Virus record (IMG/VR): IMGVR_UViG_3300021431_000008
DNA: 64,000 bases
Source of the DNA: a virus
Lineage: Duplodnaviria; Heunggongvirae; Uroviricota; Caudoviricetes
Reading direction: 5' to 3' (one strand)
Both the position numbers and the translations under genes were made by a program. Position 1 is the first letter of the stretch; every line of letters begins with the position of its first letter. The notes under the pieces were generated by a model, which was not told the DNA's origin, ran no database searches, and saw only the letters and a list, made by a program, of their open reading frames with translations. Positions 4,639-34,562 of the stretch are shown piece by piece.

Positions 4639-5040
4639 TTAATAACCAAAGCGGGCCACTTCTTTCATGGTCCATTCTAGCTCATCGATTTGAGCTTTAT
4701 AAGCATTTGCAACGGTTCCGCTTGCAGGCGGATCAAAGATCATTCGCGTCTTCAGATAAATGTACTGCTTGACTTCTTCCGGCATCTCTTCGGGATCCAT
4801 AAAATCGGCCCATGTATCAGCATCTGTATGAATCTTAAACGGAGTACTCGGACCGATGCCAAGCTGACAGAGTCTGGAGAACGCGGAATTAATATTGATG
4901 ATCAGATCCGTATCGAAAACCTCGTAGGAGGCCGACGGACCAATCATTTGTCTAATAGTAAGTAGAATCGAATCGTCCATTTTGAATAAGCCTCCTAGTT
5001 TGTGTAAAGTTAACTTTTCAGTTATAGCTTCCACGGACAT
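4639..5040 (-). CDS. hypothetical protein
   Basis: 133-aa ORF. Confidence 0.5.
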   Translation of the reverse strand: MSVEAITEKLTLHKLGGLFKMDDSILLTIRQMIGPSASYEVFDTDLIININSAFSRLCQLGIGPSTPFKIHTDADTWADFMDPEEMPEEVKQYIYLKTRMIFDPPASGTVANAYKAQIDELEWTMKEVARFGY

Positions 5041-5498
5041 GTGTCGTTCGGGGAGCGCGCTGTTAATTCATAAGGTAGAATCAAAGACTCGTCGCCGTAG
5101 TGAATTGCATTATGCGTATCGAGGCGACAGGAAATCACGTATTCCGGATTCATTAGAAACTCAGTCTGATCGAGAATGTCTTTCGTGTCGATCGGATTCA
5201 TGTGATGAATAAAGATGAGCTCATCAGGAGCATATTCATGGCCATCAATACCGAGGTCACAGCCATGGTCACGAACAATAATGTCACGACGAAATCTTCG
5301 CCATTCGTAGGATGTATAAAACTTCTGATTGATGTAGCGTTCCCAGCCGAATGTCTCTTCTCCGACAGCGCCTCCGAGCTTCAAATATCTGAAGCGTTCA
5401 AGGAATGTCGGAATCTGCATTAACTCAGTATACGTACGGATCGAATGGTTCATCTGTAGTCTCCGTTCGATAAGAAGTAAGCGCATCAATAACTTCAC
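5022..5498 (-). CDS. HNH (His-Me finger) endonuclease
   Basis: RRDIIVRDHGCDLG...FIHHMNPI...THNAIHYGD spacing typical of phage HNH endonucleases. Confidence 0.6.
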   Translation of the reverse strand: MKLLMRLLLIERRLQMNHSIRTYTELMQIPTFLERFRYLKLGGAVGEETFGWERYINQKFYTSYEWRRFRRDIIVRDHGCDLGIDGHEYAPDELIFIHHMNPIDTKDILDQTEFLMNPEYVISCRLDTHNAIHYGDESLILPYELTARSPNDTCPWKL

Positions 5499-6565: not shown

Positions 6566-9500
6566 TTAATCGCCTCCCTCATTAATTTCATTAAAATTCT
6601 TGAATTCTTTCTTTAGTATTTCATAAGAAATTCCAAGCTCTTTAGCCACAGTTGATGGAGCCATGCCAGAGTTCAGCATAATTCTCGCTCTCGACTTAGT
6701 CGAAGCCGGAATTGTGGCCTTTTGTCTCGGCAGTGCGCGCTGCTTAAGTTTTTCTTTGTCCGAATACCGAATGACCTGCTTGAATTTCTCACTGGAAATG
6801 GCACCGGCCTGAATAGCATCCCATTCGCGATCACTGAGCACGATCTGAAACCGTTTTTCATGAGTTCCGCCTCGCACAGCGTCTCTCGCATCAGCTAGGG
6901 CCTTCGAAGCGAGCTTCTTTCGCTTATCGAGATTGTCTTTCTCTTTCAACGTCGGATCTGCTGCAATCTTGGCATCCATCACACTGCTGGCAAGCATCTG
7001 TGCCTGACGTTCTTTCGGAGCTTCAAGTGCTGCAAGATCTAATTTCTTCGTTAAAGTTCCGTCCTTACCGACAACATCCGCATAAGTTTTCTTCGCTGTA
7101 GAATTCTCATCCATCGTTCCAGCTGCTCGTGCCTCTTTGCGAGCTTCATTCGCCAATGCTTTCAAACGATTGGCGTGATCTGCATAGATTTCTTCCATGT
7201 AATAACCGGAAGAAAGCTCATGAGCATCCTTAACGGCTGCCATCTTTTCAGTTTCCTGAGTCGCTTTCTTAATTTTTCCGGTATTTCGATATACAGGTTT
7301 ACCGGATTCATACAAAGCCAACTCCTCGGCTGTCATCTTAGCAGGATCTGTAATCTTCTTCCGCTCTGGGTATGTCCGATTTGTATTACGATAGATTACT
7401 TCACCATTCTTATAGCGTTCATACTCATCGGGAGTCAGCTTCGACGAATTCTTCTTTCCACCACTTTCCAGATACTCTTTGTATTCCTCGTCGCTCATCG
7501 GCTTTGTGCCGTATACTTCTTTCCGTGCCGGAATATCGGCGCGACCTTTGGCCTTGGAAATAAGTGTTGCGGCGCCACCTTTTTCTTTTCCCTGATAACG
7601 AAGTCGTAGTTCGGCAATACCATTGTCGATCTCGGACTGTTGCCAATCCAGATTATGCTTTTCGGCGTCGATAACGACCATGGAATGTTTAACGGCACGT
7701 GTAATCTCGTCCTCATTGCAGCCTATAATCTGCATATCGGTAATAAGGTTAGAAACTTTTCCCATTTCAGCGCCCTTATTGAAGCCGTCACCGCGTTTCG
7801 TTCCATCGCCTTTGCCGGTACGCACCGGATCATCAGGCGATCTAGAATACATTTCGGAAGGATCAAAATCCTTAAGGCCATCGAGAGGCGGACGAGTCTG
7901 TAGTTTCTGTCCAACGGTCGGAATAACAAGAACAGTATCGCCGTCATAGTCGGCACCTGATAACTGTTTTGCAACCGTTGAATTAATGCCAATTGCATGT
8001 GCAGGCGAAGTTCCAAGTGTTTCTTTTCCTTCCGGATTATCATTATTTACAATAAGCCGTGGAATCTCGAAGCGTCCGGCATGTGGATGACGAACCAGAA
8101 TTACTTCTTCACCATTCTCATAGGCAGGTGCATAAACCTCATTGTCTTTCAGACTCGGAACCGGTAAAATTGCGAACGATGCTTGTCTGGGTAAAGCCGC
8201 TGCTTTCAAATGCACAGCCGCGGCATCACAGTTATCAGCAAATTCTTCAAGAAACTCTTTCTTTAATGTAGGATTCGTCAAAGAGCGGTACTCTTCAAAC
8301 TCGTCCTTCATTTCCCCGTAACGAATATCCAGCTGCTTTTTAGCCACAACCGGAAGCTGTTTGGAAAGGAACTGCGACGAGAGGTTCTTCTGCCAACGAT
8401 CCCAGTCTTCGTCATCGTTCACGATATTAATCGGTGAAGTGTGACTCTTTCCATTGGCGTCTGTGTACTCCCATTGTCTGAAGGAAGCTCCAAATGGATT
8501 CTGACTATCGATCTCTCCGTACTGATCTTTCTTCATCTTTTTCAGAACGGAGTTATCGCCGTCGCCGATCATCGGTGTACCTTCATGCTTATTGGTATTG
8601 AAAACGATGTCGACTCCTTCCGGCATTTTCTTTGGATCTCCGTAAATCGCCATACCTTTCAGATAATGAGTTCCATCAACACCAATTCGAACCTGTGCAT
8701 AATTGCGATTTCCTAAAGAAAGATCCTCCGTTCCGGGACGAATCTCAATTACACCGTCTTTTTCCTGACCACCGCCAGGTTTGCCAGTATTGTAATTAAT
8801 CGCAACACGACTGGAATCGATACTCGGAATCGGTTTACGAATCTTTGCTTCTTCCCCATAATTTTCAAAGTAGAGGCCATCAGGAGTTGTAATTTGACTT
8901 AAATGCTCTTTTAGATCCTTCGTCGTTGTATTTCCATCGCAAAGTACTTTTAATGAAGTAAACTGCTTAGGATTCGTTACCTGATGAAGATCATAATTCA
9001 AGACATTATAGCCTTCGTCCTTTAAATAAAGGAGCGCGGCATGTAACTGCTGGTCGCTGATGTTCAACTGCCTTCCAACGCCTTCGCCAACATCCAGATA
9101 AGGCTTTGTTTTAAGCATTTCTGCCAGATTACTGGCAATAATTTCAGTCTTATTCTCGCGACGCTTCTTGGTCGGATCCAGATAGTTGCGAACGGTTCCT
9201 TCCGAAACGCCAAGTCTTTTTGCAATTTCCGTATTCGAATGGCCGTCATCACGCCATTTAATCGCCTGTCTCTGGTTCTCGACGTCCCGCTTTTCACGAT
9301 AGCGTCTTCGGATCTCACGATAGTCAGTGGTGCTCATCCCAAAAGCGGCAGCAACCTCTTTTTCGCTCAGACCCTGTTTGTGAAGTTCATCGGCTCTTTG
9401 GAGCCAATTCCGGTGTCGCTGCGGATTCTTACCGGAACCCCACGGATAGCGTCCAGAGTGTCTCGGAGTTCCGTAATGCGCAATAAATTCTTTTCGGTAC

Positions 9501-9688
9501 TGGCCGGTGGTTTCGTCAAAAACGTTCCTTTCTTCATAAATAAGACCGGTTCCATCGAAATATCCAGCGCCGCTCGAATGGATCAGCACAGCTTCGCTAA
9601 GTTCGTCGTAAAGTTCAGGCGACGGAGACGCCAGATACTCATCAATGTATTCCTTAGGCCAATCCTTGAAAATATCCAGCTCATCCAT
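6566..9688 (-). CDS. single-polypeptide two-barrel RNA polymerase (YonO-like), with N- and C-terminal sigma-region-4-like HTH modules
   Basis: aa ~330-375 ...YGDPKKMPEGVDIVFNTNKHEGTPMIGDG resembles the RNAP beta DPBB (EDMPY..GTPVDIVLNPLGVPSRMN). aa ~525-590 ILVRHPHAGRFEIP...SPAHAIGINSTVAKQLSGADYDGDTVLVIP resembles beta' (RQPTLHRLGIQAF...NADFDGDQMAVHVP) with the catalytic DxDGD. HTHs: HSNTEIAKRLGVSEGTVRNYL near the N-terminus and APSTVAKELGISYEILKKEF at the C-terminus. GGGAGG RBS; start codon shares one nt with the stop of the upstream nuclease gene. Confidence 0.65.
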   Translation of the reverse strand: MDELDIFKDWPKEYIDEYLASPSPELYDELSEAVLIHSSGAGYFDGTGLIYEERNVFDETTGQYRKEFIAHYGTPRHSGRYPWGSGKNPQRHRNWLQRADELHKQGLSEKEVAAAFGMSTTDYREIRRRYREKRDVENQRQAIKWRDDGHSNTEIAKRLGVSEGTVRNYLDPTKKRRENKTEIIASNLAEMLKTKPYLDVGEGVGRQLNISDQQLHAALLYLKDEGYNVLNYDLHQVTNPKQFTSLKVLCDGNTTTKDLKEHLSQITTPDGLYFENYGEEAKIRKPIPSIDSSRVAINYNTGKPGGGQEKDGVIEIRPGTEDLSLGNRNYAQVRIGVDGTHYLKGMAIYGDPKKMPEGVDIVFNTNKHEGTPMIGDGDNSVLKKMKKDQYGEIDSQNPFGASFRQWEYTDANGKSHTSPINIVNDDEDWDRWQKNLSSQFLSKQLPVVAKKQLDIRYGEMKDEFEEYRSLTNPTLKKEFLEEFADNCDAAAVHLKAAALPRQASFAILPVPSLKDNEVYAPAYENGEEVILVRHPHAGRFEIPRLIVNNDNPEGKETLGTSPAHAIGINSTVAKQLSGADYDGDTVLVIPTVGQKLQTRPPLDGLKDFDPSEMYSRSPDDPVRTGKGDGTKRGDGFNKGAEMGKVSNLITDMQIIGCNEDEITRAVKHSMVVIDAEKHNLDWQQSEIDNGIAELRLRYQGKEKGGAATLISKAKGRADIPARKEVYGTKPMSDEEYKEYLESGGKKNSSKLTPDEYERYKNGEVIYRNTNRTYPERKKITDPAKMTAEELALYESGKPVYRNTGKIKKATQETEKMAAVKDAHELSSGYYMEEIYADHANRLKALANEARKEARAAGTMDENSTAKKTYADVVGKDGTLTKKLDLAALEAPKERQAQMLASSVMDAKIAADPTLKEKDNLDKRKKLASKALADARDAVRGGTHEKRFQIVLSDREWDAIQAGAISSEKFKQVIRYSDKEKLKQRALPRQKATIPASTKSRARIMLNSGMAPSTVAKELGISYEILKKEFKNFNEINEGGD

Positions 9689-10260
9689 TACCCTTCAACC
9701 TCCCGCATCGACTCCTGAGCCCAGGCGTCTTTTTCTTTGATCGTACAGATAATTTCCTCCATACGGTCTTTATCAGGCATATACTCCTGAATGTCGTCGT
9801 TTTGATAGATCCGAAGATTTACTTTTGTGTTCAGAGGATTCACGCCAAAGGCGCGTTCATACTCCAAAAGAAAAAGAGCAGCATAAATCTCAAGCTGCTC
9901 CATGTGAACCGGGCCTGAGCCCGTCTTTAAGTCATGAATGCGAAGGACACCATGACTGAAGTCGATCGCATCAGTATGCCCGAAACAGGTGTCTGAATAT
10001 TTCAGCGCTACTTCAGGTGTCATGCCGTAACCGATCGCATCGTTGACGTATGCGGTCAGCGTCTGTGTCGAACCTCTAAGCTTGAGACCTTCCTGAATCA
10101 GCTTTGCAGCCAAGTCGTGAAGTCTCGTTCCTCTTGCAGCAGCATTCTGAGAGAGAATATAAGCCCGAAGCTGATCCTGCGTATAGTTCAACCAATAGGG
10201 CTTACTTGGACTTAGAAGCGCGTGTTTTCCTTCCAGTTCGAAATGCCTGTTGAAGTTCAT
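9688..10260 (-). CDS. PD-(D/E)XK family nuclease (RecB/Cas4-like fold)
   Basis: HTDAIDF...LRIHDLKTG (D...D-x-K) and EQLEIYAALF motifs; start moved to MNFNRHF, preceded by GGAGG. Confidence 0.6.
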   Translation of the reverse strand: MNFNRHFELEGKHALLSPSKPYWLNYTQDQLRAYILSQNAAARGTRLHDLAAKLIQEGLKLRGSTQTLTAYVNDAIGYGMTPEVALKYSDTCFGHTDAIDFSHGVLRIHDLKTGSGPVHMEQLEIYAALFLLEYERAFGVNPLNTKVNLRIYQNDDIQEYMPDKDRMEEIICTIKEKDAWAQESMREVEG

Positions 10261-10525
10261 CCAAAACCTCCTGCTTATTTTCAGGATAGATAAATCGGGA
10301 GAAGGACATCTGATCGGCGCGCTGTACATAGTAGTCCTGATTCGGACGATGACTCGCATCAGCCGACTTCTTGCATTCTAGAAGCGCCCAATGCTTCCCG
10401 TACAGTACCGTGAGATCAGGCAAACCCTGTTTCGTTTCGTTCTTGTATATCAGAGCATCAGGAAACAAGCCTCGCAGTTCCTCAATCAGATTTCTTTGAA
10501 ATTCGCTCTCAAGCATCTCTTTCAC
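10202..10525 (-). CDS. VRR-NUC domain nuclease
   Basis: GLPDLTVLYGKHWALLECKK...HRPNQ matches the VRR-NUC signature (GxPDL...iE.K...Q). Confidence 0.65.
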   Translation of the reverse strand: MKEMLESEFQRNLIEELRGLFPDALIYKNETKQGLPDLTVLYGKHWALLECKKSADASHRPNQDYYVQRADQMSFSRFIYPENKQEVLDELQQAFRTGRKTRASKSK

Positions 10526-10613: not shown

Positions 10614-11864
10614 TCAAGTATTTCGAGAGCGAAAAAACATGCTTTCGTTAAAATTCTTCTTCCTCTTCAAAGCTCTGCCGATCGCAACGTCAATCGGCGC
10701 ATAGGTTTTAAAACTGTAATAATAGAGATCGCGATAGGGAGTATTTCTTCGGTCGATTCGTCCCATGGCCTGCTCGGTCGCCTTATAGGAATAGTTCTGG
10801 GAATAGAACAACATGGCATTCGTCGTGATGCAGTTCCAGCCTTCAGAGCCGCCCATGTAATTCACAAAGTAAACCCAGCGCTCCGAGTCCGGGATCTCTT
10901 CATGCTTTTGCCCATTCCATTCCCGACAGACCGTTCCTTCCGGCCAAGCCGCTTCCCTGAGAATATCCAGCTCGTAATTGAAGTTATAGAAGATGATGAG
11001 CCGAGGCTGCTCTTTGGCAATCTCCAAGGTCATCTCAATTCTCGAGGGATCTGAATTCACTGCTTTCCGAAGCAGGTAGCAAAGCTCGCTGATGTTCTCG
11101 ATCGGTTTGTCCTCATAGACATTCCATCGATCTTTCATCAAAGCCTTGTAGGTCTCACGGTCATAGCTCACCAGACGAATATCCATATGCCGTTCTGTTG
11201 GCTTGACGTAGTCAATGTTCACCAGAATGGAATCGCGCAGGCGCGTCAGAATATAATCGTCCACATAGCGATCGACTTGCGGATACTTGGTGTAGCGACT
11301 ATAGATCACATGCCGCATTTCAAAGTCTCTCTTATTTCGGTAAAACCCGTTTGCGATGAAAATGGACAAATAGTCCATCCAACAGTCACCCGGTGTCGCC
11401 GAGAGAAATATCCAGCCGTTTGATCTGGCGATCTTAATAAACGCCTTCGACCAGGCACCGTAACCGACAACGCGTTGTTCATCAAAGAGAAAGAACGCAT
11501 CTCTCACTTCAACATACTTCCCGATGTTGTTCCACGAGTCCACAACGACCTTTACTTTATCGCCATAAGCCGACTTTGAAATATCCATAGACATCTCAAA
11601 AGGCTCAAGCTCTTCTTCCCATTCTCCCTTATCGCGTTTCTTGGCAGTTGTAATAATGTACAGATCTTTCGGCCAGAGCATTGGAACCAAATCCTTCTTC
11701 AGCCCTCGTTTCTTTCCGTCGATCTGTCCACCGCACACACTGCAGAAATAATAAGCGAGGCCGGTCCGGCTTTTACCGGATCCGACCCCACCGCATAAAA
11801 TATTTCCGTTTTTCAGTTTTGAGAGAGCTTTCAGCTGGCCCTCATCCAGTTCGGGTTGCATCAA
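10614..11864 (-). CDS. SF2 (SNF2/DEAD-like) DNA helicase
   Basis: Walker A GGVGSGKS, motif II FLFDEQ, motif III LSATPG. Confidence 0.7.
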   Translation of the reverse strand: MMQPELDEGQLKALSKLKNGNILCGGVGSGKSRTGLAYYFCSVCGGQIDGKKRGLKKDLVPMLWPKDLYIITTAKKRDKGEWEEELEPFEMSMDISKSAYGDKVKVVVDSWNNIGKYVEVRDAFFLFDEQRVVGYGAWSKAFIKIARSNGWIFLSATPGDCWMDYLSIFIANGFYRNKRDFEMRHVIYSRYTKYPQVDRYVDDYILTRLRDSILVNIDYVKPTERHMDIRLVSYDRETYKALMKDRWNVYEDKPIENISELCYLLRKAVNSDPSRIEMTLEIAKEQPRLIIFYNFNYELDILREAAWPEGTVCREWNGQKHEEIPDSERWVYFVNYMGGSEGWNCITTNAMLFYSQNYSYKATEQAMGRIDRRNTPYRDLYYYSFKTYAPIDVAIGRALKRKKNFNESMFFRSRNT

Positions 11865-11884: not shown

Positions 11885-12427
11885 TCAGAACGGCTCTTCC
11901 TCCGTACCGGGAGCCGTAACCGGCTGCTGATTCATATAACCATACTTCTCGGCGAAGTAATCGGGAACGACCTCGACCCAGATCTTCTGCGCATACAGCG
12001 GAATATACTTCGTGCCGTTGTTGTGAATCTTCTCCTTACCGAACTCAACCTCAAGGCACATGTTACGAATATCCACGCTGTTGATCACACGAATGTGGTC
12101 AGCGTCCAGAACGGTCGTATTACCGTTCGAGATCATGTAAGCGTCAACCGGCTTCAGGAAGTACGAAACCGTTACCGAAACATAAGGCATCGGAACGTCG
12201 TTCGGTCCCTGAACCTTGGTATACTTTACTTCACAACCGCGATCCTTCAGCTCCTCAGCGATCTCCTCCGTGATAAACAGCAGGAAATTCCGATAGCCGG
12301 GGCTGTTCACGGTACGGCCGGTAACCTTGTCCTTCTTCTCCTCGCCACCGAAGTTGCGGGAACGCACCTCACGGTCGACAATGCCATCGATAATGATGCT
12401 ACGAGACTTTCTTTCAGCGATCTGCAT
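11885..12427 (-). CDS. hypothetical protein (between helicase and replicase; possible DNA-binding role)
   Basis: 180-aa ORF in the replication module. Confidence 0.5.
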   Translation of the reverse strand: MQIAERKSRSIIIDGIVDREVRSRNFGGEEKKDKVTGRTVNSPGYRNFLLFITEEIAEELKDRGCEVKYTKVQGPNDVPMPYVSVTVSYFLKPVDAYMISNGNTTVLDADHIRVINSVDIRNMCLEVEFGKEKIHNNGTKYIPLYAQKIWVEVVPDYFAEKYGYMNQQPVTAPGTEEEPF

Positions 12428-12465: not shown

Positions 12466-15400
12466 TTATTGTGCAAAAGTCGCGAAATCACCATATTGAT
12501 TGATCGCGGCTATTGCGTCGTTCTTAAGTCCCTCGAAGTAACTCAGATCGATCGAGTCCTCAAGGTGACGTTCTTTGACGGTTTCGGCCTCAAGCCAGCG
12601 ATAATCCTTCGAACCAGCTGCATAACCGAACTTTCCGCCATTCTCCCGAACCAGACGACCTCCGCCATGTCCGGGCTTGATCGGGCAAAACAGACCTGCT
12701 TTCCCGACAAAGTGATAATCGTGACACTTTTTGATCTCTTCACGAATTTCGCACAAGCGAATATAATCCTTGTGAAATTCCTCCGAGACGTACTGATCGA
12801 GCTTTTTGTCTGAAATATCTGTCAGAACCGGATTGAAGCCGTCCGTCAGATTCTTATCATTCTCATCTGTAAGCTCAAACTGCACTTTATGCCACTTCTT
12901 GACAAGTTTGTCCTCTTCCTTCTCCAGAAGCTCCGACGAAGGCAGTTTCTCGTCCATATCCAAATATAAACCGAGACCGACCTTTACCGTCTGTGTCACG
13001 CACAGGTCATAAAAGCCAATCTCGTCATGGCTGAACAGAGTCTTGAATTCATAGGGAGAACTGTCTTCCTTGAACTGGTCGCCGGTTCCCTCCCATTTTC
13101 CTGCCGATTTGCCGTTCTCCGGATCGTTGGTGTACTTACAAATATAAACTGCGTTATTGACGAGACAGATCTTCTCGAACTTATGCTCGATTTCAAAGGT
13201 GTATCCGAACTTCTTGCCATAATCCATGACAAAGTTGTAGATCTTCTCGTCGGGGTTTGCGATCTTGATGGAATCAGTCTTCACATGAATGACCCGATAG
13301 CCCTGATCCTTGACTTTCAGCATCAGATCAATCATGAATAGTGCTCCGCGCTTTGCCACCCAGTTATCGTCGTTCCGAGGATCTCTTAGACGATTCGTAA
13401 AATGAGCCGCTGTAAGGCCGTAAACGCTATTGATTGCGATCTTCAGCGCTTTCGAGAGCTGTTTGGCATCTTCATCAGACGTCAGGTACGGAGCCAGAAT
13501 TCCGTTATAGAGCGAACGGACCCAGTCGTAGTCCTTATGCTTGATATGCAGACGAATATCCAGCAGCATCTTGAAGTTCTCAGTGTAAGGCCCAAAGCCA
13601 TTCTCAGCAATCAAAGACGAAGGATGGTGTGATGCCGAGTCGTAGCACTCGGAATATCCATACATACCCCAGTTAGCAAAGACAAAGCCGCCTTCGCCAG
13701 GGTCATAGCCCTTATACCAGCTCTTACCGGAGATCATCGTGCAACGATAGTAGGTCTTGCCTTCAACAGGAACCTCGTCTTTGGTCTTGTTGTACTTGCC
13801 GGAAATATCCAGCTCATAGAACTCGAACCTCTTCGGGTTACAGGTCGGCAGCATATCGTCTACGACGACCATATAGCGCTCCTTCGGGAAGCCATACGGT
13901 GAGAACTCATAACCCGGGAACAGTTTCGACAGATCAGGCTTAACAAACATCGCCTGCGGGTTTTTCTCGTTTCCAACGATCAGCTTCGTAGTAAGCGTAT
14001 TTGTCGAGTCATTGACGGTTGAACCGGGGCCTCTCAGCGCATTAGCCAACTCCACCAGAATTTCTCTGGCCCGGAAGTCCGACTGATTGGCATAGAACAC
14101 CTGCTCTGTCGCGATAACGTCGTTACAGCAATATTCCGCTACGCGTTTCCAGAGATTCTGCGGCACAGGCTTATCCCATGGCAGGCCTGCTTCATCGTGA
14201 CGAATATCCACGCCCTGCTTCTGTAACTGGATCTCCCACTTCTTAAGCCCCTTCTTATCGGAGCAGAAGTCGAAAATATCCGTGTAGCTGAGATTCTTCG
14301 ACTCATTGATCGTCCAATCATTACGGCCCTTTGGAGCGTTGATGATGTTCTGCGAACGAGTAAAGAGTTCAAAGATCGAATCGCCGCGAATTCTGGCATA
14401 GCAAATATGATTATCGTATCCGAGATTATTAAAACCGATCATGTTGTACGACTGGAACACACGCAGCACTTCATTCGGCTCCGGGTTAATCATCGTAATG
14501 CAATCCTGACCCATCGGTTTATAGACAAGAACGAACAGGTTCGGAAAGACCTCGGTATCGAAGAAGGCAATCTTCTTCTCTCCTTCTTTCGGCTCTACCC
14601 ATTCGGACTCTTCTTCGCTCTTATAAGGGAAACTCTCAGCCTTGTCCAAGCACTGAAGCGAATGATTGTGCGAAGCAGCGGCAAACGCCAGCACCTGAGG
14701 CTTCAGTTCACTCAGGTCATACTTCATCCCGCTCTCATAGGCCTCGTTCAAAACCTTCCCGATATAATCGACGCAACATACTGTCGAAAACGGGGAGATC
14801 TCCTTACGCAAAGCCTTTCTGACAGCAGCAAGCAAGTGCTTCTGATCTTCTATAGTGTACTCATTTACCGTTTTCGGATTCTCCTTTCTCAAAGGTAGAC
14901 CGGAACTAATCGTCGCAATGGGAATATCATTGCAGCGGGTCAGCTTCCTCCTCAAGCTGGCCTTTCCGGTATAGAACTTGATCTCGACGTCGTCTTCATA
15001 GATCGGCAGAACCTTCGAAATGTCACCGGTATAAATATAAGTCAGGTGAATCCCGGCTCCGCTCTTGCTTAGCTCTGCATAGGTAGGAGGCCACTTGGAT
15101 GCAGCCTTCATGTTGAGCTCCAATGACTTCTTTCCTGTCTTCGGATCCTTCTTGTCGAAGTCAACAAAACAGAACTGCTCAGGACATCTAAGATAGTGAA
15201 GCTCTGCCGTATTCAGATCCTTCAGAATCGTCTGGCAATCGTCCCACGGAACAGATGGCCGGTCGCTTCCGTCCTCCTTAATATAAGCATACTGAGCAGG
15301 CCAGTCTGAACCGATCTTATCCAGGATACTTTCTGTGGTGTTGAACTGGAGCCAACTGTCATTACTCTCTTTACTTTTCTTGTCTTTCTTCTCAGATCCG

Positions 15401-16695
15401 GCCGTTTCATCAAACTTTTCGATTCTTAAACCAGTATAAATATTTCTCTTGGGTTCGCCATGATAGTAACCACGCTCTTTGTAAACCAGAAAATAATTCT
15501 TAAGTTCTTCTTTTACGATTCTCTTGGAATAAGGATAAGGCACTTTTGCATCATCACAATACACACGATACTTAAACCAAATATCATCTAACAGTAACGA
15601 CTCCTCGCCTTTAAGCCATTCGTAATTTTCGAACATGAAGTTATAGAAATCGTTCGTCGCCGACATCATGCTAAGCGGAACATAATCGTCATAACAATGA
15701 GGATCTTCATTGTATACATCGAGACAATACGCTGCGATCGCCCCGAGCTCAAATCCTATGTTCTTCTTAAGCTGTATATAACGCCGATTCGGAATCTTGT
15801 TTCCGGTAGGTGAAATATCGATCAGTCGTCTAAGAAGACCGGACTTGGAATCCGTAATTTTCACAGGCGAATTCGTAGCAATGAAGAGCATCGTCTGAAT
15901 GCGCATCTCATACTTACTTTTAAACTTTTCGTTAATCGTCAAGGTTTCGTGCGAAACCAATGCGTTCAGTCGAGTGTTTGTTTCAATTCTACTCAACTGA
16001 CCATCCGGATCGATTGCTACGATCGGATTTGACTTAAACGATTCAAGAGCAAAGTCTGATGATCCGCTTCCCAAGGCTGCTGCTTCAAAATGTCCGCAAT
16101 AACCTTCAAACAAATTTTCTATAATTTCAAGTATTGTACCTTTACCGCATCCAGGGGCACCATAAAATACGAAGAACTTCTGAATCCAACGAGAATCACC
16201 ATTTACGATAGACCCTATAGCCCATTCAATCTTATGGCGTTCTTCAGGAGAATATAATGTTCCGACAAGCTCATTCCAATTGTCAATACTTCCATGTTCG
16301 AGGGCATACGGAACACACTTCGATGAATAATCTTCACGTTTCGGAACAGTATTCATAAACGTCAACGATTCATCGAGAGGGTGATAATTATCGCTTGTCT
16401 GTTTTGTTACATACTTTCGCCACTTATCGATGCTTCCGGAATCACTGTCCCACATATAAGCAACGTCAATATTATCGTAATCGCCTTTACGCTTTTCTTT
16501 ATACTCTTCAAGTTCCGCATCGATCAGGTCAATAACATCATCCCATTGCGTAGACCAGCGTTCATTACGTTCGTCCCAAATAGCATAAAAATCTCCGCCG
16601 CGAATCATAAGATCTTTACTTTGTTTTGTAATGAATTTCGGATAGACCAATGCCGGTTGTCCTGCTTTCTGCGGAATGCGCAAAGCTGGTTTCAT
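12466..16695 (-). CDS. fused replicase: D5N-like/SF3 helicase + AEP primase-like motifs + family-B DNA polymerase (3'-5' exonuclease and polymerase domains)
   Basis: P-loop FVFYGAPGCGKGT (aa ~177-187), Walker B IVAIDPDGQ, motif C FIATNSP. CFVDFDKKD and SGAGIHLTY (AEP DxD / SGxGxH). ExoI AFFDTEVFPNLF, ExoII GFNNLGYDN, ExoIII YCCNDVIATE. PolB motif B KIAINSVYG, motif C IHVKTDSI. Confidence 0.8.
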   Translation of the reverse strand: MKPALRIPQKAGQPALVYPKFITKQSKDLMIRGGDFYAIWDERNERWSTQWDDVIDLIDAELEEYKEKRKGDYDNIDVAYMWDSDSGSIDKWRKYVTKQTSDNYHPLDESLTFMNTVPKREDYSSKCVPYALEHGSIDNWNELVGTLYSPEERHKIEWAIGSIVNGDSRWIQKFFVFYGAPGCGKGTILEIIENLFEGYCGHFEAAALGSGSSDFALESFKSNPIVAIDPDGQLSRIETNTRLNALVSHETLTINEKFKSKYEMRIQTMLFIATNSPVKITDSKSGLLRRLIDISPTGNKIPNRRYIQLKKNIGFELGAIAAYCLDVYNEDPHCYDDYVPLSMMSATNDFYNFMFENYEWLKGEESLLLDDIWFKYRVYCDDAKVPYPYSKRIVKEELKNYFLVYKERGYYHGEPKRNIYTGLRIEKFDETAGSEKKDKKSKESNDSWLQFNTTESILDKIGSDWPAQYAYIKEDGSDRPSVPWDDCQTILKDLNTAELHYLRCPEQFCFVDFDKKDPKTGKKSLELNMKAASKWPPTYAELSKSGAGIHLTYIYTGDISKVLPIYEDDVEIKFYTGKASLRRKLTRCNDIPIATISSGLPLRKENPKTVNEYTIEDQKHLLAAVRKALRKEISPFSTVCCVDYIGKVLNEAYESGMKYDLSELKPQVLAFAAASHNHSLQCLDKAESFPYKSEEESEWVEPKEGEKKIAFFDTEVFPNLFVLVYKPMGQDCITMINPEPNEVLRVFQSYNMIGFNNLGYDNHICYARIRGDSIFELFTRSQNIINAPKGRNDWTINESKNLSYTDIFDFCSDKKGLKKWEIQLQKQGVDIRHDEAGLPWDKPVPQNLWKRVAEYCCNDVIATEQVFYANQSDFRAREILVELANALRGPGSTVNDSTNTLTTKLIVGNEKNPQAMFVKPDLSKLFPGYEFSPYGFPKERYMVVVDDMLPTCNPKRFEFYELDISGKYNKTKDEVPVEGKTYYRCTMISGKSWYKGYDPGEGGFVFANWGMYGYSECYDSASHHPSSLIAENGFGPYTENFKMLLDIRLHIKHKDYDWVRSLYNGILAPYLTSDEDAKQLSKALKIAINSVYGLTAAHFTNRLRDPRNDDNWVAKRGALFMIDLMLKVKDQGYRVIHVKTDSIKIANPDEKIYNFVMDYGKKFGYTFEIEHKFEKICLVNNAVYICKYTNDPENGKSAGKWEGTGDQFKEDSSPYEFKTLFSHDEIGFYDLCVTQTVKVGLGLYLDMDEKLPSSELLEKEEDKLVKKWHKVQFELTDENDKNLTDGFNPVLTDISDKKLDQYVSEEFHKDYIRLCEIREEIKKCHDYHFVGKAGLFCPIKPGHGGGRLVRENGGKFGYAAGSKDYRWLEAETVKERHLEDSIDLSYFEGLKNDAIAAINQYGDFATFAQ

Positions 16696-16744
16696 AAAAT
16701 CCGTAACCTCAAACCTCCTTTCCGGTGAAAAAATTTGCTCATTT

Positions 16745-16980
16745 TCAGTATGTCAATATGTCAAATATGTCAAAAAATTTTCAAGCTTTTATTATAAAAA
16801 TATATTTTTTTCACGCACTAGTTGAAAAAAAAATGACATATTGACATGTTTTGACCCTGTTTTTTTCAATTTTTTGCATTTTTCACCAAAAAATCGTGTG
16901 TTTTTGCGAAAAAACGTGAAAAAATCAACTTTTACAGAAAATTACGGATCGCGTCTATTTTTCACCATTTTTGACATATT
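16745..16980. repeat. iteron-like TTGACAT direct and inverted repeats in an A-tract-rich intergenic region (candidate origin / early promoter cluster)
   Basis: three tandem TGTCAA (rc TTGACA) copies at 16751, 16759 and 16768; opposite-orientation TGACAT copies at 16834, 16842 and 16972 plus ttgacc at 16852; poly-A/T tracts between them; immediately upstream of the replicase start. Confidence 0.55.
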
Positions 16981-17236
16981 AATCGAGTCTGAAATTCTTA
17001 ATTGTGTAATTAATTGCGGCGCTTACGTCGAACGTGACAATTCCGTTTTTGTGCATAATACGCAAAAGCTTTTCATATGTTTCAGGGTTCAGTCGGCACT
17101 CAAACATATAGTTTTTATCAGCACCCTCCATGTCGTCCCACTTATAATTATTATCAATGCTTAAATACATTTCCTTCATTTTCTCCTTTCGAATCACACC
17201 GGATAATGCTCTTCCAGATACGCGTTCATCTGCCAC
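16979..17236 (-). CDS. hypothetical protein
   Basis: 85-aa ORF. Confidence 0.4.
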   Translation of the reverse strand: MADERVSGRALSGVIRKEKMKEMYLSIDNNYKWDDMEGADKNYMFECRLNPETYEKLLRIMHKNGIVTFDVSAAINYTIKNFRLD

Positions 17237-18633: not shown

Positions 18634-19635
18634 TCAAATCTTCCCTTCCAGCGGATAGAAGTTGAAGTCGATGCGCAGGCAGGGTTCATACACCTTACAC
18701 TGATGCGCCACGTCCCACTTCTCCTGATAACCACGAAGACGAGTGATCTTGAGCTTTCTCATCTCGGGATCGGGCACTTTACGGGCATTACCGGAGATAC
18801 CGTAGCTGAGAAGCTTGTCCATGCTCTCCCCTTCACCGAGTGCGTTCTCGTTAAAGCCTAGGATACGGAGAATATCCAGCCCGTTGTAGGCCCTCATAAA
18901 GCCAATCTCCAGCTTGTCGTTAATCTCCTTCACTCTGGCGTCCAGGAACTCATCAGTGAACTGCCGCCACATAATATCCGTGTTCTCTTCCGTGAAATTG
19001 CGTGCGAAGATGCTTCCAGGCTGCGCATAGAACACATCAGCCTTCTCCTGACGAACATTCTTTTCACCGGTTTCAGGATCCGTATCGACAACTGTGATCA
19101 TACCTTCCTGAGCGCCCATGAAGATCTTGTTCTCAGCTTCTTCACCAACTGCCTTAGCGACTCTCTCCCGGTATTCCTGCAGAAGCTGATTACCAGCGAG
19201 AATATCAGCGGCAAGCCCACGATTGAGTTTCCTCAGCTCTCCGTGACCGCCAACGATCATACCCATGCCGCCGAGCCACAAAAGCGCCGGAACACCGTAG
19301 ATCTTGACCATTTCGTAGGCTGCATGAGCATAAATCTTCAGAAACTGTCTACCGCGCTCGACTTTGAGCTGCTTTTTCGTCTCGGGGAGAATATCAATAG
19401 GATCAATGTCGTCCGTGATCTGAAGCTTCTCCTCGACCTCCATAGCCTTCTTTTTCGTGTCTTCCACGACAGTTTTTGCTTTTTCAGTCTTCGTGCAGGC
19501 ATAAATCGTACCGGCAAGTACAGAAAGAGCTCCCGAAACCAGCATAATCTCGGGTCTTGCGGCGTTAACTTTCATTCCGAAGCCCTGAAAAGCACCCTTC
19601 CAGGTCTCACCTTTAAAGAAATTCGTGAAATTCAT
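18634..19635 (-). CDS. paralog A of a 3-member two-TM protein family (unknown function)
   Basis: 333 aa; two hydrophobic segments; central ...AKAVGEE... region shared with the 21736 and 22727 products; GGAGG RBS. Confidence 0.55.
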   Translation of the reverse strand: MNFTNFFKGETWKGAFQGFGMKVNAARPEIMLVSGALSVLAGTIYACTKTEKAKTVVEDTKKKAMEVEEKLQITDDIDPIDILPETKKQLKVERGRQFLKIYAHAAYEMVKIYGVPALLWLGGMGMIVGGHGELRKLNRGLAADILAGNQLLQEYRERVAKAVGEEAENKIFMGAQEGMITVVDTDPETGEKNVRQEKADVFYAQPGSIFARNFTEENTDIMWRQFTDEFLDARVKEINDKLEIGFMRAYNGLDILRILGFNENALGEGESMDKLLSYGISGNARKVPDPEMRKLKITRLRGYQEKWDVAHQCKVYEPCLRIDFNFYPLEGKI

Positions 19636-21735: not shown

Positions 21736-22713
21736 TTATACGTCGTTTCTTTCGATCAGCTCACTTGACGGCGCGAGAAGCTCCGAGTAGTCGATATAGC
21801 ACACGACAGGGAAGCCTGAATCCGGATCCACATAGTTCTTATACTCGAGGATCTGATTCTGTTTTACCGGGTCTCCCCCGCCGTAATATCTGAATTCGAG
21901 CAGATCACCGATTCTCGCCTCATTCTTTCCCGTAATTTCCCCGATGCACTTGAGGAAGACTTCCACATCCATCGAGGAATAAATATCACTTGCTGCATCT
22001 TCATCGCCGCTACCCCAAGGCAAGTCGCTTGACACATAGAAGGCATCCCCGATTCGCTTTCGGATGGCATCTTTCCGCCGATCCTTGAGTCGCTCATTGA
22101 ACTCAGCGATTCCGTTCGTGACATCGAGAATGCTCGCCCTGAATTTCTGTCCGGTTACCTGATCGATAAAGAGCGTCTTTCCATTAGCCGGTTCTGACAA
22201 GACCTCTTTCAAGATCTCATCTTTCGGATACTCCTCTTCTCTCAGCTCATCTTTCATCTCGACAAACTTCTTCTCACCGACTTCAGCCTTGAGTTTTTCG
22301 ATGAGTTTCTGCTGCTTGTCGTCTTTGTCCGTCATGAACTGAGTCAGAAGTGCCATTTCGGTCAGTCTTGAGAGATTCAGTCCGTTCGCTCCGATCGCAA
22401 GTCCGGTTGATCCTACACCGAGCAAAGCCGCCATCCAGCAATACTGAAGATAGATGATAAATTTGTCTTTGACAGGCAGCTTCCTCAGATCTTCCAGCGG
22501 TGTGTCCGAATCGAGGTCAGCATTTAGAAGGCTCTCTTCATACTCGATCTTCTTTTCGGCTTTCTTCCCCTGCTTCCAGAAAATATAAACAGCCGTCCAG
22601 CCCATGACAACGGATCCTGCTGTCATGAGAGTCGGCGCATTCTTCTTACCGGAAGCTAATAGACCTGCCGCCAGACCTTTAATCTTATTCCACGAAATAT
22701 CAAGTTTGCTCAT
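21736..22713 (-). CDS. paralog B of the two-TM protein family
   Basis: start trimmed to MSKLDISW with AAGGAG RBS; NAPTLMTAGS and KLKAEVGEKKFVEMKDEL shared with paralog C. Confidence 0.55.
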   Translation of the reverse strand: MSKLDISWNKIKGLAAGLLASGKKNAPTLMTAGSVVMGWTAVYIFWKQGKKAEKKIEYEESLLNADLDSDTPLEDLRKLPVKDKFIIYLQYCWMAALLGVGSTGLAIGANGLNLSRLTEMALLTQFMTDKDDKQQKLIEKLKAEVGEKKFVEMKDELREEEYPKDEILKEVLSEPANGKTLFIDQVTGQKFRASILDVTNGIAEFNERLKDRRKDAIRKRIGDAFYVSSDLPWGSGDEDAASDIYSSMDVEVFLKCIGEITGKNEARIGDLLEFRYYGGGDPVKQNQILEYKNYVDPDSGFPVVCYIDYSELLAPSSELIERNDV

Positions 22714-22726
22714 GTAACCCATCTCC

Positions 22727-23584
22727 TTACTTGCCGTACATATTCTCTTCGGGTTCTGTATCAATACAAATCGCCTTCATACCGAACGCCCCGACATTGA
22801 CATATCCGATATGCGCCTTGAACGGACGATCCTTGGTCCAGCAATATCGGTACCACAACGGACACGACTCATATCCGAGCATGTTTCTGAACGTATTCCA
22901 GTCCAGAAATTCTACTCGACTAGCTTCTGCAATGGCATCTTTGACTCGGCCTTCCGGAACATCCCACATGTCACCGGTCCAGGGCACATAAAATCTGGTT
23001 AGTCCTTCATCGGGCTCCACGCCATCTTTGGTGATCACCTTGGCTTTCTCAGCTTTGATCTCACCTTTCTGGAGCTTCTCGGCGAACATCTCTTTCTCAA
23101 CACTCTCCTTCAGCTCCTGAAACTTCTCCTCACCAACCATTTCCTTGGCTTTTTCGCCGAGCTTCTGAAGCTTATCGGCATTGGTGGCAAGCAGAGTACC
23201 CATCATGGCAATTGTCCGACCGTTCAGATAGTTTGACAGAACAGCGAAGCCTGCAGATCCGATCCCGCTCAGAAGAGCAAACCGATAAATATAAACGAGT
23301 CGGAGCATATGACTGAGCTTCACGTGTCCCTTCTCTTCCTTGGCTTCTTCAGCACTCATGGCGCCACTTGCCACGTCCGTTTCGATCTCGTCAACGGAAT
23401 CTTCATATAGTCTCTCGGCATCCGCAGCATTCTTAGCAGCCCGATGCATGAAATATACAGTCGCCACAACTCCGAGAATCGATCCGAAGGTCGCGAGAGT
23501 CGGAGCGTTTGTATCCAGTAACTTTTTGATTTCTCCGAAAAACTTATTCGGCTTGATTGTCTTCACGACATTGTTTTCTTTCAT
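22727..23584 (-). CDS. paralog C of the two-TM protein family
   Basis: start trimmed to MKENNVV with GGAGG RBS; NAPTLATFGS, KLGEKAKEMVGEEKFQELKE. Confidence 0.55.
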   Translation of the reverse strand: MKENNVVKTIKPNKFFGEIKKLLDTNAPTLATFGSILGVVATVYFMHRAAKNAADAERLYEDSVDEIETDVASGAMSAEEAKEEKGHVKLSHMLRLVYIYRFALLSGIGSAGFAVLSNYLNGRTIAMMGTLLATNADKLQKLGEKAKEMVGEEKFQELKESVEKEMFAEKLQKGEIKAEKAKVITKDGVEPDEGLTRFYVPWTGDMWDVPEGRVKDAIAEASRVEFLDWNTFRNMLGYESCPLWYRYCWTKDRPFKAHIGYVNVGAFGMKAICIDTEPEENMYGK

Positions 23585-23606
23585 ATAGTCATTACCTCCT
23601 CGAAAG

Positions 23607-24035
23607 TTAAACTTCCCAATATACCTCATACGGACGAGCTTCTGCCGGAATAGAAATGAGCCAGACTTTTTCTCCGAATCGGTCATAGAGTTCTGTACCA
23701 GGACCCAGCTCATCGAACGTAAAGCACGGATATGGGTACTCTTCGCTCGGACTCCATCCAAAAGTTTCTCCGGCGTCATCAAACATAAGTCCCCACATTG
23801 ATTCGAGATCTCCAATGTTTCCGCATTCACCATTGTCTCCGTCCGTTCCGTTCACCCGTGCCACAAAATCTTTACATTGATCTTTGACATCTTCGATGCT
23901 CGATCGAAAATATCTTCCGTTCCAGGCAAAACAGCAGAGATCATTGCCCCGTCCCGTATACTCGACTGACGGTCGGTTCACGAATCTCCCAAATGGCTGT
24001 CCGGCTTTCTGGACAACGTATTGCGACTGAATCAT
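23607..24035 (-). CDS. hypothetical protein
   Basis: 142-aa ORF; ATGA overlap with the upstream small gene. Confidence 0.5.
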   Translation of the reverse strand: MIQSQYVVQKAGQPFGRFVNRPSVEYTGRGNDLCCFAWNGRYFRSSIEDVKDQCKDFVARVNGTDGDNGECGNIGDLESMWGLMFDDAGETFGWSPSEEYPYPCFTFDELGPGTELYDRFGEKVWLISIPAEARPYEVYWEV

Positions 24036-26568: not shown

Positions 26569-27129
26569 TTACTGAAATTCCTTCCACAACATACTCGGCT
26601 GGATTCCGTTATTCTTCTGGTACTTACCGTGTGTATAGTGTACCGGAACGCCAACTTCACCCATACTATCGGTATCGGCAAGTGTATGATAATAGATCTG
26701 TCCGACTTCTACGCCTGGATAAATAATGACGGGCTGCACACAGGAGATTTCCAGTGTCCAATACCCGTCAAATCCGTTATCGCCAAAACCGGCCGTTGCG
26801 TGAATGAATATCCCGAGACGCCCAATGCTTGAACGCCCTTCCAACATGGGAACAAAACCATCCGTGAAAGTCCGCTCCTGTGTTCTTGCCAAATATAGCT
26901 TTCCTGGGATCAGGAGCTTTCCGGCGTTCGGAGAGATTCGTTCGATGGTATACGGCTCCTCTTTCTTCATGTCGAGAATACTGTGGTTATAAGTTAGTAG
27001 CTCATCGGCCAGATGAAGATTATAACTATTCGGATTCAGAAACTTTTTGTCGAACGGATCGATGACGATAGTTCCCTTCTCCACTTCTTCCAGAATCCGA
27101 TTCCCGCTTAGAATGCCGTAATCATTCAC
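26569..27129 (-). CDS. dcd: dCTP deaminase (Dcd/dUTPase-fold)
   Basis: GRSSIGRLGIFIHATAGFGDNGFDGYWTLEISC aligns with Dcd [33 protein letters not shown]; GTG start with GAGGAGG RBS chosen over the in-frame TTG. Confidence 0.75.
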   Translation of the reverse strand: MNDYGILSGNRILEEVEKGTIVIDPFDKKFLNPNSYNLHLADELLTYNHSILDMKKEEPYTIERISPNAGKLLIPGKLYLARTQERTFTDGFVPMLEGRSSIGRLGIFIHATAGFGDNGFDGYWTLEISCVQPVIIYPGVEVGQIYYHTLADTDSMGEVGVPVHYTHGKYQKNNGIQPSMLWKEFQ

Positions 27130-27448
27130 CTTTCCTGACCTCCTCAACGATCTTTTCTTTCCATTTGGGGCTTTTGTTCATACTCTCGACTAATTGTTTT
27201 GCCGCAAGCTGACAAATATATTCCCGGTTTTCGCTTAGCACATTTCGCACTTCATCCTTGACCCAGTCCTGAAAGCCACGATCCGGATCTCCATGTTTTG
27301 TGTATCCGGATCCCCAGCCCTTATTAAAAATACCATCGATCACAGACTGCTTGAGTTCGTTATTAATGTGATCCACACAGCTTTTTTCGACAATATCTTT
27401 GACACGCTGATCATCAAAGTCGAATGCGATCTGAACTACATGCTGCAT
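27122..27448 (-). CDS. hypothetical protein
   Basis: 108-aa ORF. Confidence 0.45.
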   Translation of the reverse strand: MQHVVQIAFDFDDQRVKDIVEKSCVDHINNELKQSVIDGIFNKGWGSGYTKHGDPDRGFQDWVKDEVRNVLSENREYICQLAAKQLVESMNKSPKWKEKIVEEVRKGE

Positions 27449-31714: not shown

Positions 31715-32263
31715 TCACTTCTCTCCTTCCCAGCACTGAATGAAGTTATAGATTGCTTCGACAGTATTCGTAAAATCATGATTCGGAATAGTCATCCGAT
31801 AAATTATATCTTCGTCCAAACTATCTGGCCCGAAAGATAAATCGTCCTGCAATTCTCGTTTTGAAATATCTTCATCGGAATCACCTCGCTGTTTCATGCG
31901 TTCAATTCTGACTTTCCATGGAGCATAAATACGGATCGGCACAATAAGTTTATTTCTTTCATAGTGTTCAGACAGATACTTCACCCCATACGGATCAATG
32001 ACGTAAATATCATGGGTATCAACAATGTCATCCGTTACTCCGTAGCGATAACCATTGTACTCGGTATAGGCGCACATCGGCCCAAGAGCGTCGAACTCTT
32101 CATTCGTAACAAAAACATGACCTCTCTCACCGTCGTAGCGAGGAGGCCTGGTCGTATAGGATTCTACAGCTTTGTATCCGTATGTTGTCTGTAATTCGTT
32201 GGCGATAGATGTCTTTCCGCTTCCGGATGGACCGACGATAAGATAAATATTTTTAAGGCTCAT
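31715..32263 (-). CDS. guanylate-kinase-like nucleotide kinase (phage dNMP kinase candidate)
   Basis: P-loop GPSGSGKTS and TTRPPRYDGERGHVFVTNEEF (GMK signature TTR..R.gE.dG.dY.FV). Confidence 0.65.
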   Translation of the reverse strand: MSLKNIYLIVGPSGSGKTSIANELQTTYGYKAVESYTTRPPRYDGERGHVFVTNEEFDALGPMCAYTEYNGYRYGVTDDIVDTHDIYVIDPYGVKYLSEHYERNKLIVPIRIYAPWKVRIERMKQRGDSDEDISKRELQDDLSFGPDSLDEDIIYRMTIPNHDFTNTVEAIYNFIQCWEGEK

Positions 32264-34100: not shown

Positions 34101-34177
34101 TGGTGGACCGTCTGGGACTTGAACCCAGGACCTGAGGTTTATGAGACCACTGCTCTGACCGACTGAGCTAACGGTCC
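34101..34177 (-). tRNA. tRNA-Met (CAT)
   Basis: minus strand GGACCGTTAGCTCAGTCGGTCAGAGCAGTGGTCTCATAAACCTCAGGTCCTGGGTTCAAGTCCCAGACGGTCCACCA; acceptor, D-arm and T-arm pair; anticodon loop CTCATAA; encoded CCA. Confidence 0.8.
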
Positions 34178-34437
34178 ATTTCCATTAGTGGGTGACAAAG
34201 TGCATTGATATAAGCTGTATGCGCTTCTTTTTCGAGCTCTTTGGCTTCCTCCCATTTTTGTTTGTAGATAGATACTTCATAGGCTTGTTCGTATCCCTCG
34301 TTTTCAAGGCATTCTAAGTAACCTTCTAATGCATACCAGCTAATAATATCGTAATCAATCTTTTTGCCATCCCTGAATTTACAGACACATACATTGTCGG
34401 AGTAAGCCTCTTCGATAGTGTATTGTAATTTACTCAT
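34168..34437 (-). CDS. hypothetical protein
   Basis: 89-aa ORF. Confidence 0.45.
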   Translation of the reverse strand: MSKLQYTIEEAYSDNVCVCKFRDGKKIDYDIISWYALEGYLECLENEGYEQAYEVSIYKQKWEEAKELEKEAHTAYINALCHPLMEMDR

Positions 34438-34467
34438 TTTGTTGTCTCCTTTCTAAATCTACGAAAA

Positions 34468-34543: not shown

Positions 34544-34562
34544 AAATATAAGAAAAAAGCAG

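Follow-up and report, generated by a model that had tools for sequence, protein, structure and literature searches.

The window analysed here is a 64,000-nucleotide stretch of the tailed-phage record IMGVR_UViG_3300021431_000008 (Caudoviricetes), and the element under study is its replicase gene, located on the minus strand at 12466..16695. The gene is an ATG-initiated open reading frame (ORF) of 1409 codons plus a stop codon, free of internal stops, whose product matches the profile phrog_4210, annotated as 'DNA polymerase', with 1533 bits. Along the chain, a D5-like N-terminal region is followed by a superfamily 3 (SF3) helicase, an archaeo-eukaryotic primase (AEP), an alpha-helical domain (aHD), and a 3'-5' exonuclease with a family-B DNA polymerase (PolB). 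An earlier sequence-only reading had described three modules, helicase, primase and PolB, fused in this order in a single 1409-aa ORF at 12466-16695. Its location was correct but lacked the strand, which is minus; every motif it named was read from the translation at the residue numbers given; the order is borne out by profiles, folds and homology to the protein GP55 of Lactococcus phage 1706; and each of the enzymatic modules is backed by independent evidence. We estimate at about 0.88 the probability that the gene encodes a GP55-type 'four-in-one' replicase, combining helicase, primase, proofreading exonuclease and family-B polymerase.

The window protein and GP55 are collinear from aa 9 to 1403 (BLASTP, 35% identity, 733 bits over approximately 1400 columns). 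The fusion of SF3, AEP and PolB domains was noted by Kazlauskas et al. (NAR 2016; PMC4889955), and GP55 was characterised biochemically as a 'four-in-one replicase' by Zhang et al. (NAR 2025; PMC12205980), so that the sequence-only reading was right to call the arrangement unusual, yet the novelty it implied is not upheld. GP55 carries out complete de novo replication of single-stranded M13 DNA when given NTPs and dNTPs. Its helicase is UTP/dTTP-dependent and its unwinding is abolished by K189A; its RNA primase is abolished by D509A and by the aHD mutants of Y655 and F667, its 3'-5' exonuclease by D712A/E714A, and its DNA polymerase activity by D949A (PMC12205980). In the pairwise alignment, all seven of these residues are identical in the window protein, with K189 corresponding to K185 in the helicase, D509 to D514 in the primase, Y655 and F667 to Y659 and F671 in the aHD of the primase, D712/E714 to D713/E715 in the exonuclease, and D949 to D1019 in the polymerase. 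Homology, domain folds, catalytic-residue conservation and synteny thus link the two proteins, which possess the SF3 helicase, the PriS-like AEP, the aHD and the PolB with exonuclease in the same order and next to the same neighbour genes. Unlike GP55, the window protein is 92 aa longer, has two additional folded insertions in its polymerase domain, and belongs to another phage lineage, its nearest isolate being Faecalibacterium phage FP_oengus (48% identity). Each feature by which membership in the GP55 family can be tested was found in the window protein, which on the basis of its sequence is a new, divergent member of this known and recently characterised family.

The family is large. More than 1000 homologues of GP55, mostly from human-associated phages, have been reported (PMC12205980), and a tblastn search of the replicase against 50,697 phage records matched 360 of them, including 252 in which at least 80% of the query is matched at a single place. 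The approximately 252 sequenced phages with full-length homologues carry the gene mostly under the annotation 'DNA primase/polymerase'. Among metagenomic proteins more than 8000 relatives were found, the nearest being 92% identical and likewise 1409 aa long; the nearest sequences lie on metagenomic contigs of approximately 85-100 kb. Full-length homologues with 40-48% identity, 93-100% coverage and the same invariant motifs are encoded by actinobacteriophages of Arthrobacter, Gordonia, Streptomyces and Curtobacterium, where they are called 'DNA primase/polymerase', and by FP_oengus, where the label is 'helicase/polymerase'; these proteins, annotated by similarity only, differ in their hosts and in genome size (54-60 kb). 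When the AEP and aHD segment alone was searched against 1.84 billion cluster representatives, 374 clusters were recovered at E<=1e-3 and 203 at E<=1e-30, and in almost all of the 150 matches listed the segment occupies approximately residues 440-720 of proteins of 1240-1520 aa. This near-constant position within long proteins indicates that the module is essentially confined to the fused architecture. The 103 matches from Enterococcus phages were rejected as members of the fused family, as they concern the PolB part only (22-24% identity, approximately 31-33% coverage). In about 100 siphophages of Enterococcus, a PolB encoded on its own matches aa 707-1168 only, at 22-24% identity; on sequence similarity, it could possibly be an unfused relative of the polymerase module.

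Residue conservation was assessed on an alignment of 119 full-length relatives with 35-51% identity to the window protein, and all frequencies given below refer to this set. In each of the four active sites, the catalytic residues are conserved in 98-100% of the relatives: G184, K185, N275, R289 and R290 in the helicase; D512, D514, H550, E571, R582 and R583 in the primase; D713, E715, Y760, D761, Y855 and D859 in the exonuclease; and D1019, K1085, N1089, Y1092, G1093 and D1141 in the polymerase. Conservation at this level points to purifying selection on every module and is at odds with the primase or helicase being vestigial.

By analogy with GP55, the window protein would share its enzymatic activities, its use of RNA rather than DNA primers, its nucleotide preference and its dimerisation. 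In the mechanism that we propose, the N-terminal SF3 helicase of D5/P4-like type would unwind or displace the non-template strand; the NrS-1/pRN1-like AEP, together with the aHD, would synthesise short RNA primers de novo on the exposed single strands; the C-terminal PolB, of the same or of a partner subunit, would extend these primers with dNTPs; and the DEDD 3'-5' exonuclease would proofread the product. GP55 dimerises via its helicase domain, and its primase and polymerase cooperate in trans (PMC12205980); the window enzyme would likewise probably be a dimer held together by the helicase domain, with the SF3 domain driving strand displacement and with primase and polymerase probably cooperating in trans. 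In this way a single gene product, present in one or two copies, would provide the phage genome with priming, elongation, proofreading and strand displacement, and the adjacent ssDNA-binding protein, second helicase and exonuclease (see below) would probably complete the replisome.

The N-terminal region (aa 1-139, 16279..16695, minus strand) lies upstream of the ATPase core at the position occupied by D5_N, and contains W47, D59 and Y130, each conserved in at least 97% of the relatives. The D5N-like region proposed by the sequence-only reading is only partly backed: the suggested check, Pfam D5_N, did not match anywhere on the whole protein, while a profile built from 17 diverse family members aligns from position 45, approximately 130 residues before Walker A, with the matching region of the primase-helicase chain 7OLA. 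The SF3 helicase domain of D5/P4 type (aa 140-440, 15376..16278, minus strand) displays a Walker A motif GAPGCGKGT at 179-187 (G179-x4-G184-K185-(G)-T187), a Walker B region PIVAIDPD at 224-231 (D231), a motif C LFIATN at 270-275 with the sensor-1 N275, and an arginine finger RR at 289-290; G184, K185, N275 and R290 are conserved in 100% of the relatives. The sole Pfam family reported is PF19263 (DUF5906), at 177-290 (E 1.1e-11; score 45.9 bits, cut-off 27.6). The function of this family is unknown, and its match appears consistent with a D5-like ATPase core. The NCBIfam model TIGR01613 for the C-terminal domain of P4-family primases aligns at 160-382 (E 3.8e-11; its 42.4 bits are below the curated cut-off of 108.7), and several PHROG 'DNA primase' families cover aa 118-445 through their C-terminal helicase parts. 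Among the PDB sequences, the top single-sequence match was the helicase domain of the NrS-1 polymerase (6K9C, E 0.003), and the family profile matched residues 387-770 of the 797-aa chain 7OLA (E 1.2e-6). These results agree with the SF3 helicase, with Walker A, B and C at aa ~170-280, of the sequence-only reading.

Whether this domain acts at the replication fork deserves separate consideration, as the fusion may be genuine with an SF3 domain that mainly serves dimerisation, DNA binding and local strand displacement, fork unwinding being left to the separate helicase encoded at 10614-11864. The GP55 helicase domain mediates the formation of a dimer and not of a hexamer; its unwinding requires millimolar UTP or dTTP and is nearly lost without the polymerase domain, and what the helicase domain measurably affects is chiefly strand displacement and exonuclease activity (PMC12205980). 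The separate helicase (phrog_62, E 8.8e-52) is moreover conserved two genes downstream of the replicase, not only in the window but also in phage 1706 and a related contig. Against these points stand the loss of unwinding in GP55 K189A (PMC12205980) and the observation that SF3 helicases fused to primases are normally replicative (Kazlauskas 2016, PMC4889955). Conservation of Walker A, motif C and the arginine finger also reaches 99-100% in the family, which implies that NTP hydrolysis is under selection. We consider a mainly accessory role for the SF3 domain unlikely, albeit an alternative that should be kept in mind.

The C-terminal half of the protein combines a 3'-5' proofreading exonuclease subdomain (aa 705-890, 14026..14583, minus strand) with the palm, fingers and thumb of a PolB (aa 891-1409, 12469..14025, minus strand). 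The exonuclease is recognised by Exo I FFDTEVF at 711-717 (D713/E715), Exo II FNNLGYDNH at 755-763 (N756/Y760/D761) and Exo III YCCND at 855-859 (Y855/D859), and the polymerase by motif A YDSASHHPS at 1018-1026 (D1019...S1022..P1025), motif B KIAINSVYG at 1085-1093 (K1085/N1089/Y1092/G1093) and motif C HVKTDS at 1137-1142 (T1140-D1141-S1142). The exonuclease motifs and PolB motifs B and C had been placed in the C-terminal half by the sequence-only reading, and their assignment is supported by phrog_1252 'DNA polymerase' at 676-1189 (E 5e-42) and by the match of the family profile to E. coli Pol II among the PDB sequences (E 4.5e-6). An AlphaFold2 (AF2) model of aa 700-1409 (pLDDT 86.4) displays the PolB fold; this part of the protein is divergent, being approximately 15% identical to any solved PolB. 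A search of the literature yielded no usable PolB phylogeny in which the GP55-type clade is placed. Three relatives (P0140, P0193 and P0230) end at a shared point after the exonuclease subdomain, corresponding approximately to aa 918-925 of the window protein, and have a common tail, ...LVYT[DN]LATG.Q[ST]VGR, which bears no relation to the window sequence, a hint that in some phages an intron, an intein or a homing-endonuclease insertion breaks up the PolB part.

Two lineage-specific insertions distinguish the polymerase domain of the window protein from that of GP55. Insertion 1 (aa 936-995, 13711..13890, minus strand), situated directly before motif A, is predicted to form a small beta-rich subdomain (predicted strands, AF2 pLDDT ~90) and varies even between close relatives; the span from Y929 to G1002 comprises 74 aa in the window protein, compared with 18 in GP55 and a family median of 23. 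Insertion 2 (aa 1241-1330, 12706..12975, minus strand), on the C-terminal thumb side, is predicted to be a helical subdomain, with helices at residues 556-623 of the AF2 model of aa 700-1409, and here the span from D1230 to G1331 comprises 102 aa, compared with 20 in GP55 and a family median of 32. Both insertions are predicted by the model to be folded, are missing not only from GP55 but from most members of the family, and are the only place where functional novelty could hide. They might, for example, add an internal clamp or tunnel by which processivity or strand displacement is increased, comparable in function to the TPR insertions of phi29 polymerase, or provide a docking site for the adjacent ssDNA-binding protein or for the second helicase. 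That they confer on this clade a property which GP55 lacks, so that the four-in-one replicase would exist here in a form with a distinct function, seems to us rather improbable.

The AEP catalytic domain of PriS-like type (aa 445-604, 14884..15363, minus strand) contains motif I FVDFDKKD at 510-517 (D512/D514) and motif II SGAGIHLTY at 545-553 (S545-G546-x-G-x-H550). D512, D514, H550, E571 and R582/R583, including the DxD and SGxGxH motifs, are present in 100% of the relatives. The AF2 model of aa 445-700, computed from an alignment of 65 homologues (mean pLDDT 89), consists of a beta-rich domain, a short disordered linker and four helices, and the ten best Foldseek matches to it were exclusively NrS-1 N300 and pRN1 ORF904 (E 4e-5 to 1e-3), the next match having an E value of 0.18. 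The DxD/SGxGxH segment that the sequence-only reading had attributed to an AEP at aa ~510-550 is thus confirmed by invariant motifs and by a model that matches AEPs only, and the structure prediction that it had proposed as a check recovered both the AEP and the PolB folds. On the basis of predicted fold, motifs and homology to GP55, we consider the AEP assignment of aa 445-604 to be sound. The aHD that follows (aa 614-695, 14611..14856, minus strand) is a predicted primase accessory domain of four helices, located at model residues 174-185, 194-211, 218-229 and 235-244 (residues 618-688 of the protein). In GP55 the aHD stands in for PriL/HBD, with Y655 and F667 being essential for priming (PMC12205980); the aligned residues Y659 and F671 of the window protein are kept in 113 and 112 of the 119 relatives, respectively.

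Several observations weigh against assigning the window protein to the GP55-type replicases. Identity to GP55 is only 35%, the activities being taken by analogy, and the two insertions missing from GP55 could alter the properties of the enzyme. The profile searches proposed by the sequence-only reading failed for two of the modules: no AEP model, including PF09250 and PF01896, matched in Pfam at E<=1 or in NCBIfam, and the PolB models PF00136 and PF03104 gave no match in Pfam at E<=1; NCBIfam yielded sub-threshold matches only. An AEP was found among the PDB sequences neither by the single-sequence nor by the family-profile search, so that the AEP call rests on the predicted fold, the motifs and the homology to GP55 instead of on curated profiles. 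The third acidic ligand of the AEP site has two candidates, E571 (100% conserved) and D558 (94%), and polymerase motif C reads KTDS instead of the canonical DTDS, K1139 being present in 117 of the 119 relatives. With a second helicase two genes away, the chief helicase role at the fork need not fall to the SF3 domain, and as the 64 kb seen are part of a genome of probably 85-100 kb, another primase or polymerase may be encoded elsewhere; a search of the larger ORFs of the window returned none. By motif and fold, the parts nevertheless belong to the SF3, AEP and PolB superfamilies, while the curated AEP and PolB models of Pfam fail because the sequences are divergent. Failure of the AEP profiles had been named beforehand as a refutation of the primase; as both the fold comparison and the homology to GP55 are positive and uphold the segment, we do not take it as such, and conclude that the absence of curated matches reflects divergence and not a missing biochemical hallmark.

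The same negative results could be explained by the AEP-like segment being a degenerate, non-catalytic linker, with priming provided by a host primase, by protein priming or by a piPolB-like initiation. Neither Pfam nor NCBIfam detects an AEP, no AEP structure is matched significantly by sequence, and the sole sequence-profile match on the segment is that of phrog_3022 'DNA primase' at 484-558, which is weak (E 6.6e-4); an alignment of the AEP motifs with those of 7OLA is also weak and, being non-significant alone, a hint only. A confident AF2 model that matches AEP primase-polymerases exclusively is difficult to reconcile with a linker, as is the invariance of DxD, SGxGxH, E571 and R582/R583 among the 119 divergent relatives. 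In GP55, D509A, equivalent to D514, and two aHD point mutants no longer make primers, and the isolated polymerase domain shows no priming (PMC12205980). A catalytically dead linker is consequently very improbable, and piPolB-like or protein-primed initiation was rejected as the main mechanism, given the invariant AEP site and the loss of priming in GP55 D509A.

That the long ORF is an artefact, created by a frameshift, a mis-assembly or a read-through fusing two or three genes, has next to no probability: some database relatives are indeed shorter (370-1070 aa), and the corresponding region of Bifidobacterium phage BitterVaud1 is annotated as three hypothetical proteins, but the ORF is uninterrupted, a single match spans at least 80% of the query in 252 independent phage genomes, 117 of the 150 listed 50%-identity cluster representatives with AEP and aHD are at least 1200 aa long, the nearest of more than 8000 relatives likewise has 1409 aa, alignment shows the short entries to be simply truncated copies of this collinear protein, and GP55 was purified as one protein of 1317 aa (PMC12205980). 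The frameshift or assembly error that the sequence-only reading had named as its possible refutation was thus not encountered, with hundreds of genomes keeping a single gene. The short relatives were also considered as natural split or helicase-less variants; this was rejected, as they are simple N- or C-terminal truncations, which most likely represent contig ends or interrupted genes.

Compared with other primase-helicase systems, the GP55-type replicase of the window has a permuted order of primase and helicase, and an added, separate PolB, relative to D5, P4, NrS-1 and pRN1. In the NrS-1 primase-polymerase (N300, PDB 6A9W) and in pRN1 ORF904 the AEP comes first and the helicase after it, the reverse of the window protein; these proteins have an HBD where the window protein has the aHD, are without a PolB, perform priming and polymerisation with one active site, and are 11-14% identical to the window protein. 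For the D5/P4 type, represented by the 797-aa 'DNA primase' 7OLA and by poxvirus D5, the D5-like N-terminal region, the SF3 ATPase and the C-terminal helices align (E 1.2e-6), but the primase is N-terminal and there is no polymerase, whereas in the window protein the primase is C-terminal to the helicase. Another case of helicase preceding AEP is N4 dns, and Pas55 of the Actinoplanes phage phiAsp2 is a fusion of an SF3 helicase, a DnaG primase and a PolA (Kazlauskas 2016, PMC4889955). Pas55 shares the concept of helicase, primase and polymerase in one chain; with its DnaG primase and family-A polymerase, it is set apart by its description as an analogous and not a homologous fusion.

The GP55-type family constitutes a minimal replisome in which one polypeptide serves as helicase, primase, proofreading exonuclease and polymerase, and its members are candidate tools for primer-free isothermal DNA amplification. 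To this family, characterised biochemically only in 2025, the window adds a divergent gut-phage member with two extra subdomains. The protein brings no new principle, and its value is comparative: it helps to reveal which residues are invariant over approximately 120 divergent clusters and which sites of the scaffold tolerate insertions, and it corrects the bare label 'DNA polymerase' given by the PHROG profile library and by the phage 1706 record.

The genes that follow downstream of the replicase lie on the minus strand as well. The downstream neighbour (11885..12427, minus strand) encodes an ssDNA-binding or single-strand-annealing protein of 180 aa (phrog_4787, E 1.3e-23), whose counterpart in a related contig carries PF24083 (Phage_ssDNA_bind). 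It is followed by the second helicase (416 aa, 10614..11864, minus strand), which matches phrog_62 'DNA helicase' and is syntenic with the 'putative helicase' gp67 of phage 1706; by an exonuclease of 223 aa (9688..10359, minus strand; phrog_3953, E 2.1e-62), syntenic with gp69; and by an RNA-polymerase-like protein of 1040 aa (6566-9688, minus strand; phrog_4291 'RNA-dependent RNA polymerase', 1006 bits), homologous to gp75. We take the latter to be of the YonO/QDE-1-like two-barrel RNA polymerase type. Many weak helix-turn-helix and sigma-70 region-4-like matches at aa ~90-195 of this protein suggest a built-in promoter-recognition domain. The order replicase, ssDNA-binding protein, helicase, exonuclease and RNA-polymerase-like protein is common to the window, phage 1706 and the related 96-kb contig, the equivalents in phage 1706 being, in order, gp55...gp66, gp67, gp69...gp75, with the ssDNA-binding gene at the gp66 position.

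Upstream of the replicase lies an AT-rich intergenic region (16696..16978, notably 16745-16980) with clustered TGACATAT repeats: four of the five TGACATAT sites of the window are located in this region. Two tandem 9-bp TTGACATAT-like units, or three when one mismatch is allowed, are found approximately 50-80 nt upstream of the replicase start codon, and inverted repeat copies are located at 16834-16847 and 16968-16980. This putative regulatory region of the replicase could represent a promoter/operator array or possibly an origin. Between the replicase and the next upstream gene, a 66-aa ORF (16979-17179, minus strand) has a plausible ribosome-binding site and no PHROG match; it is overlapped by a 107-aa ORF on the plus strand (16841-17164), which is probably spurious. 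Further upstream of the replicase module, three paralogous genes (18634-19635, 21736-22764 and 22727-23833, all on the minus strand) belong to the unknown family phrog_2152, which corresponds to DUF6353 in the related contig.

The window as a whole displays a negative GC skew, with nearly all long ORFs on the minus strand, and resembles a section of a large tailed-phage genome in which many genes are of unknown function. Among its genes are those for an endolysin, an integrase, three tRNAs and nucleotide metabolism. The tyrosine integrase (49744-50823; phrog_1, E 2.9e-56) is encoded on the plus strand, opposite to nearly all other genes, and suggests a temperate lifestyle; FP_oengus likewise carries an integrase. 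The tRNA genes, tRNA-Met(CAT), tRNA-Gln(TTG) and tRNA-Leu(TAA), are located within approximately 1.1 kb (34101-35207, minus strand). Also on the minus strand are a dCTP deaminase-like protein (26569-27147; phrog_1663), a guanylate kinase-like protein (31715-32263; phrog_1815), an HNH endonuclease of mobile-element type (5022-5498; phrog_4321), and an ORF of 1673 aa (58821-63842), whose matches are to uncharacterised PHROGs only, phrog_14959 (384 bits) and phrog_24896.

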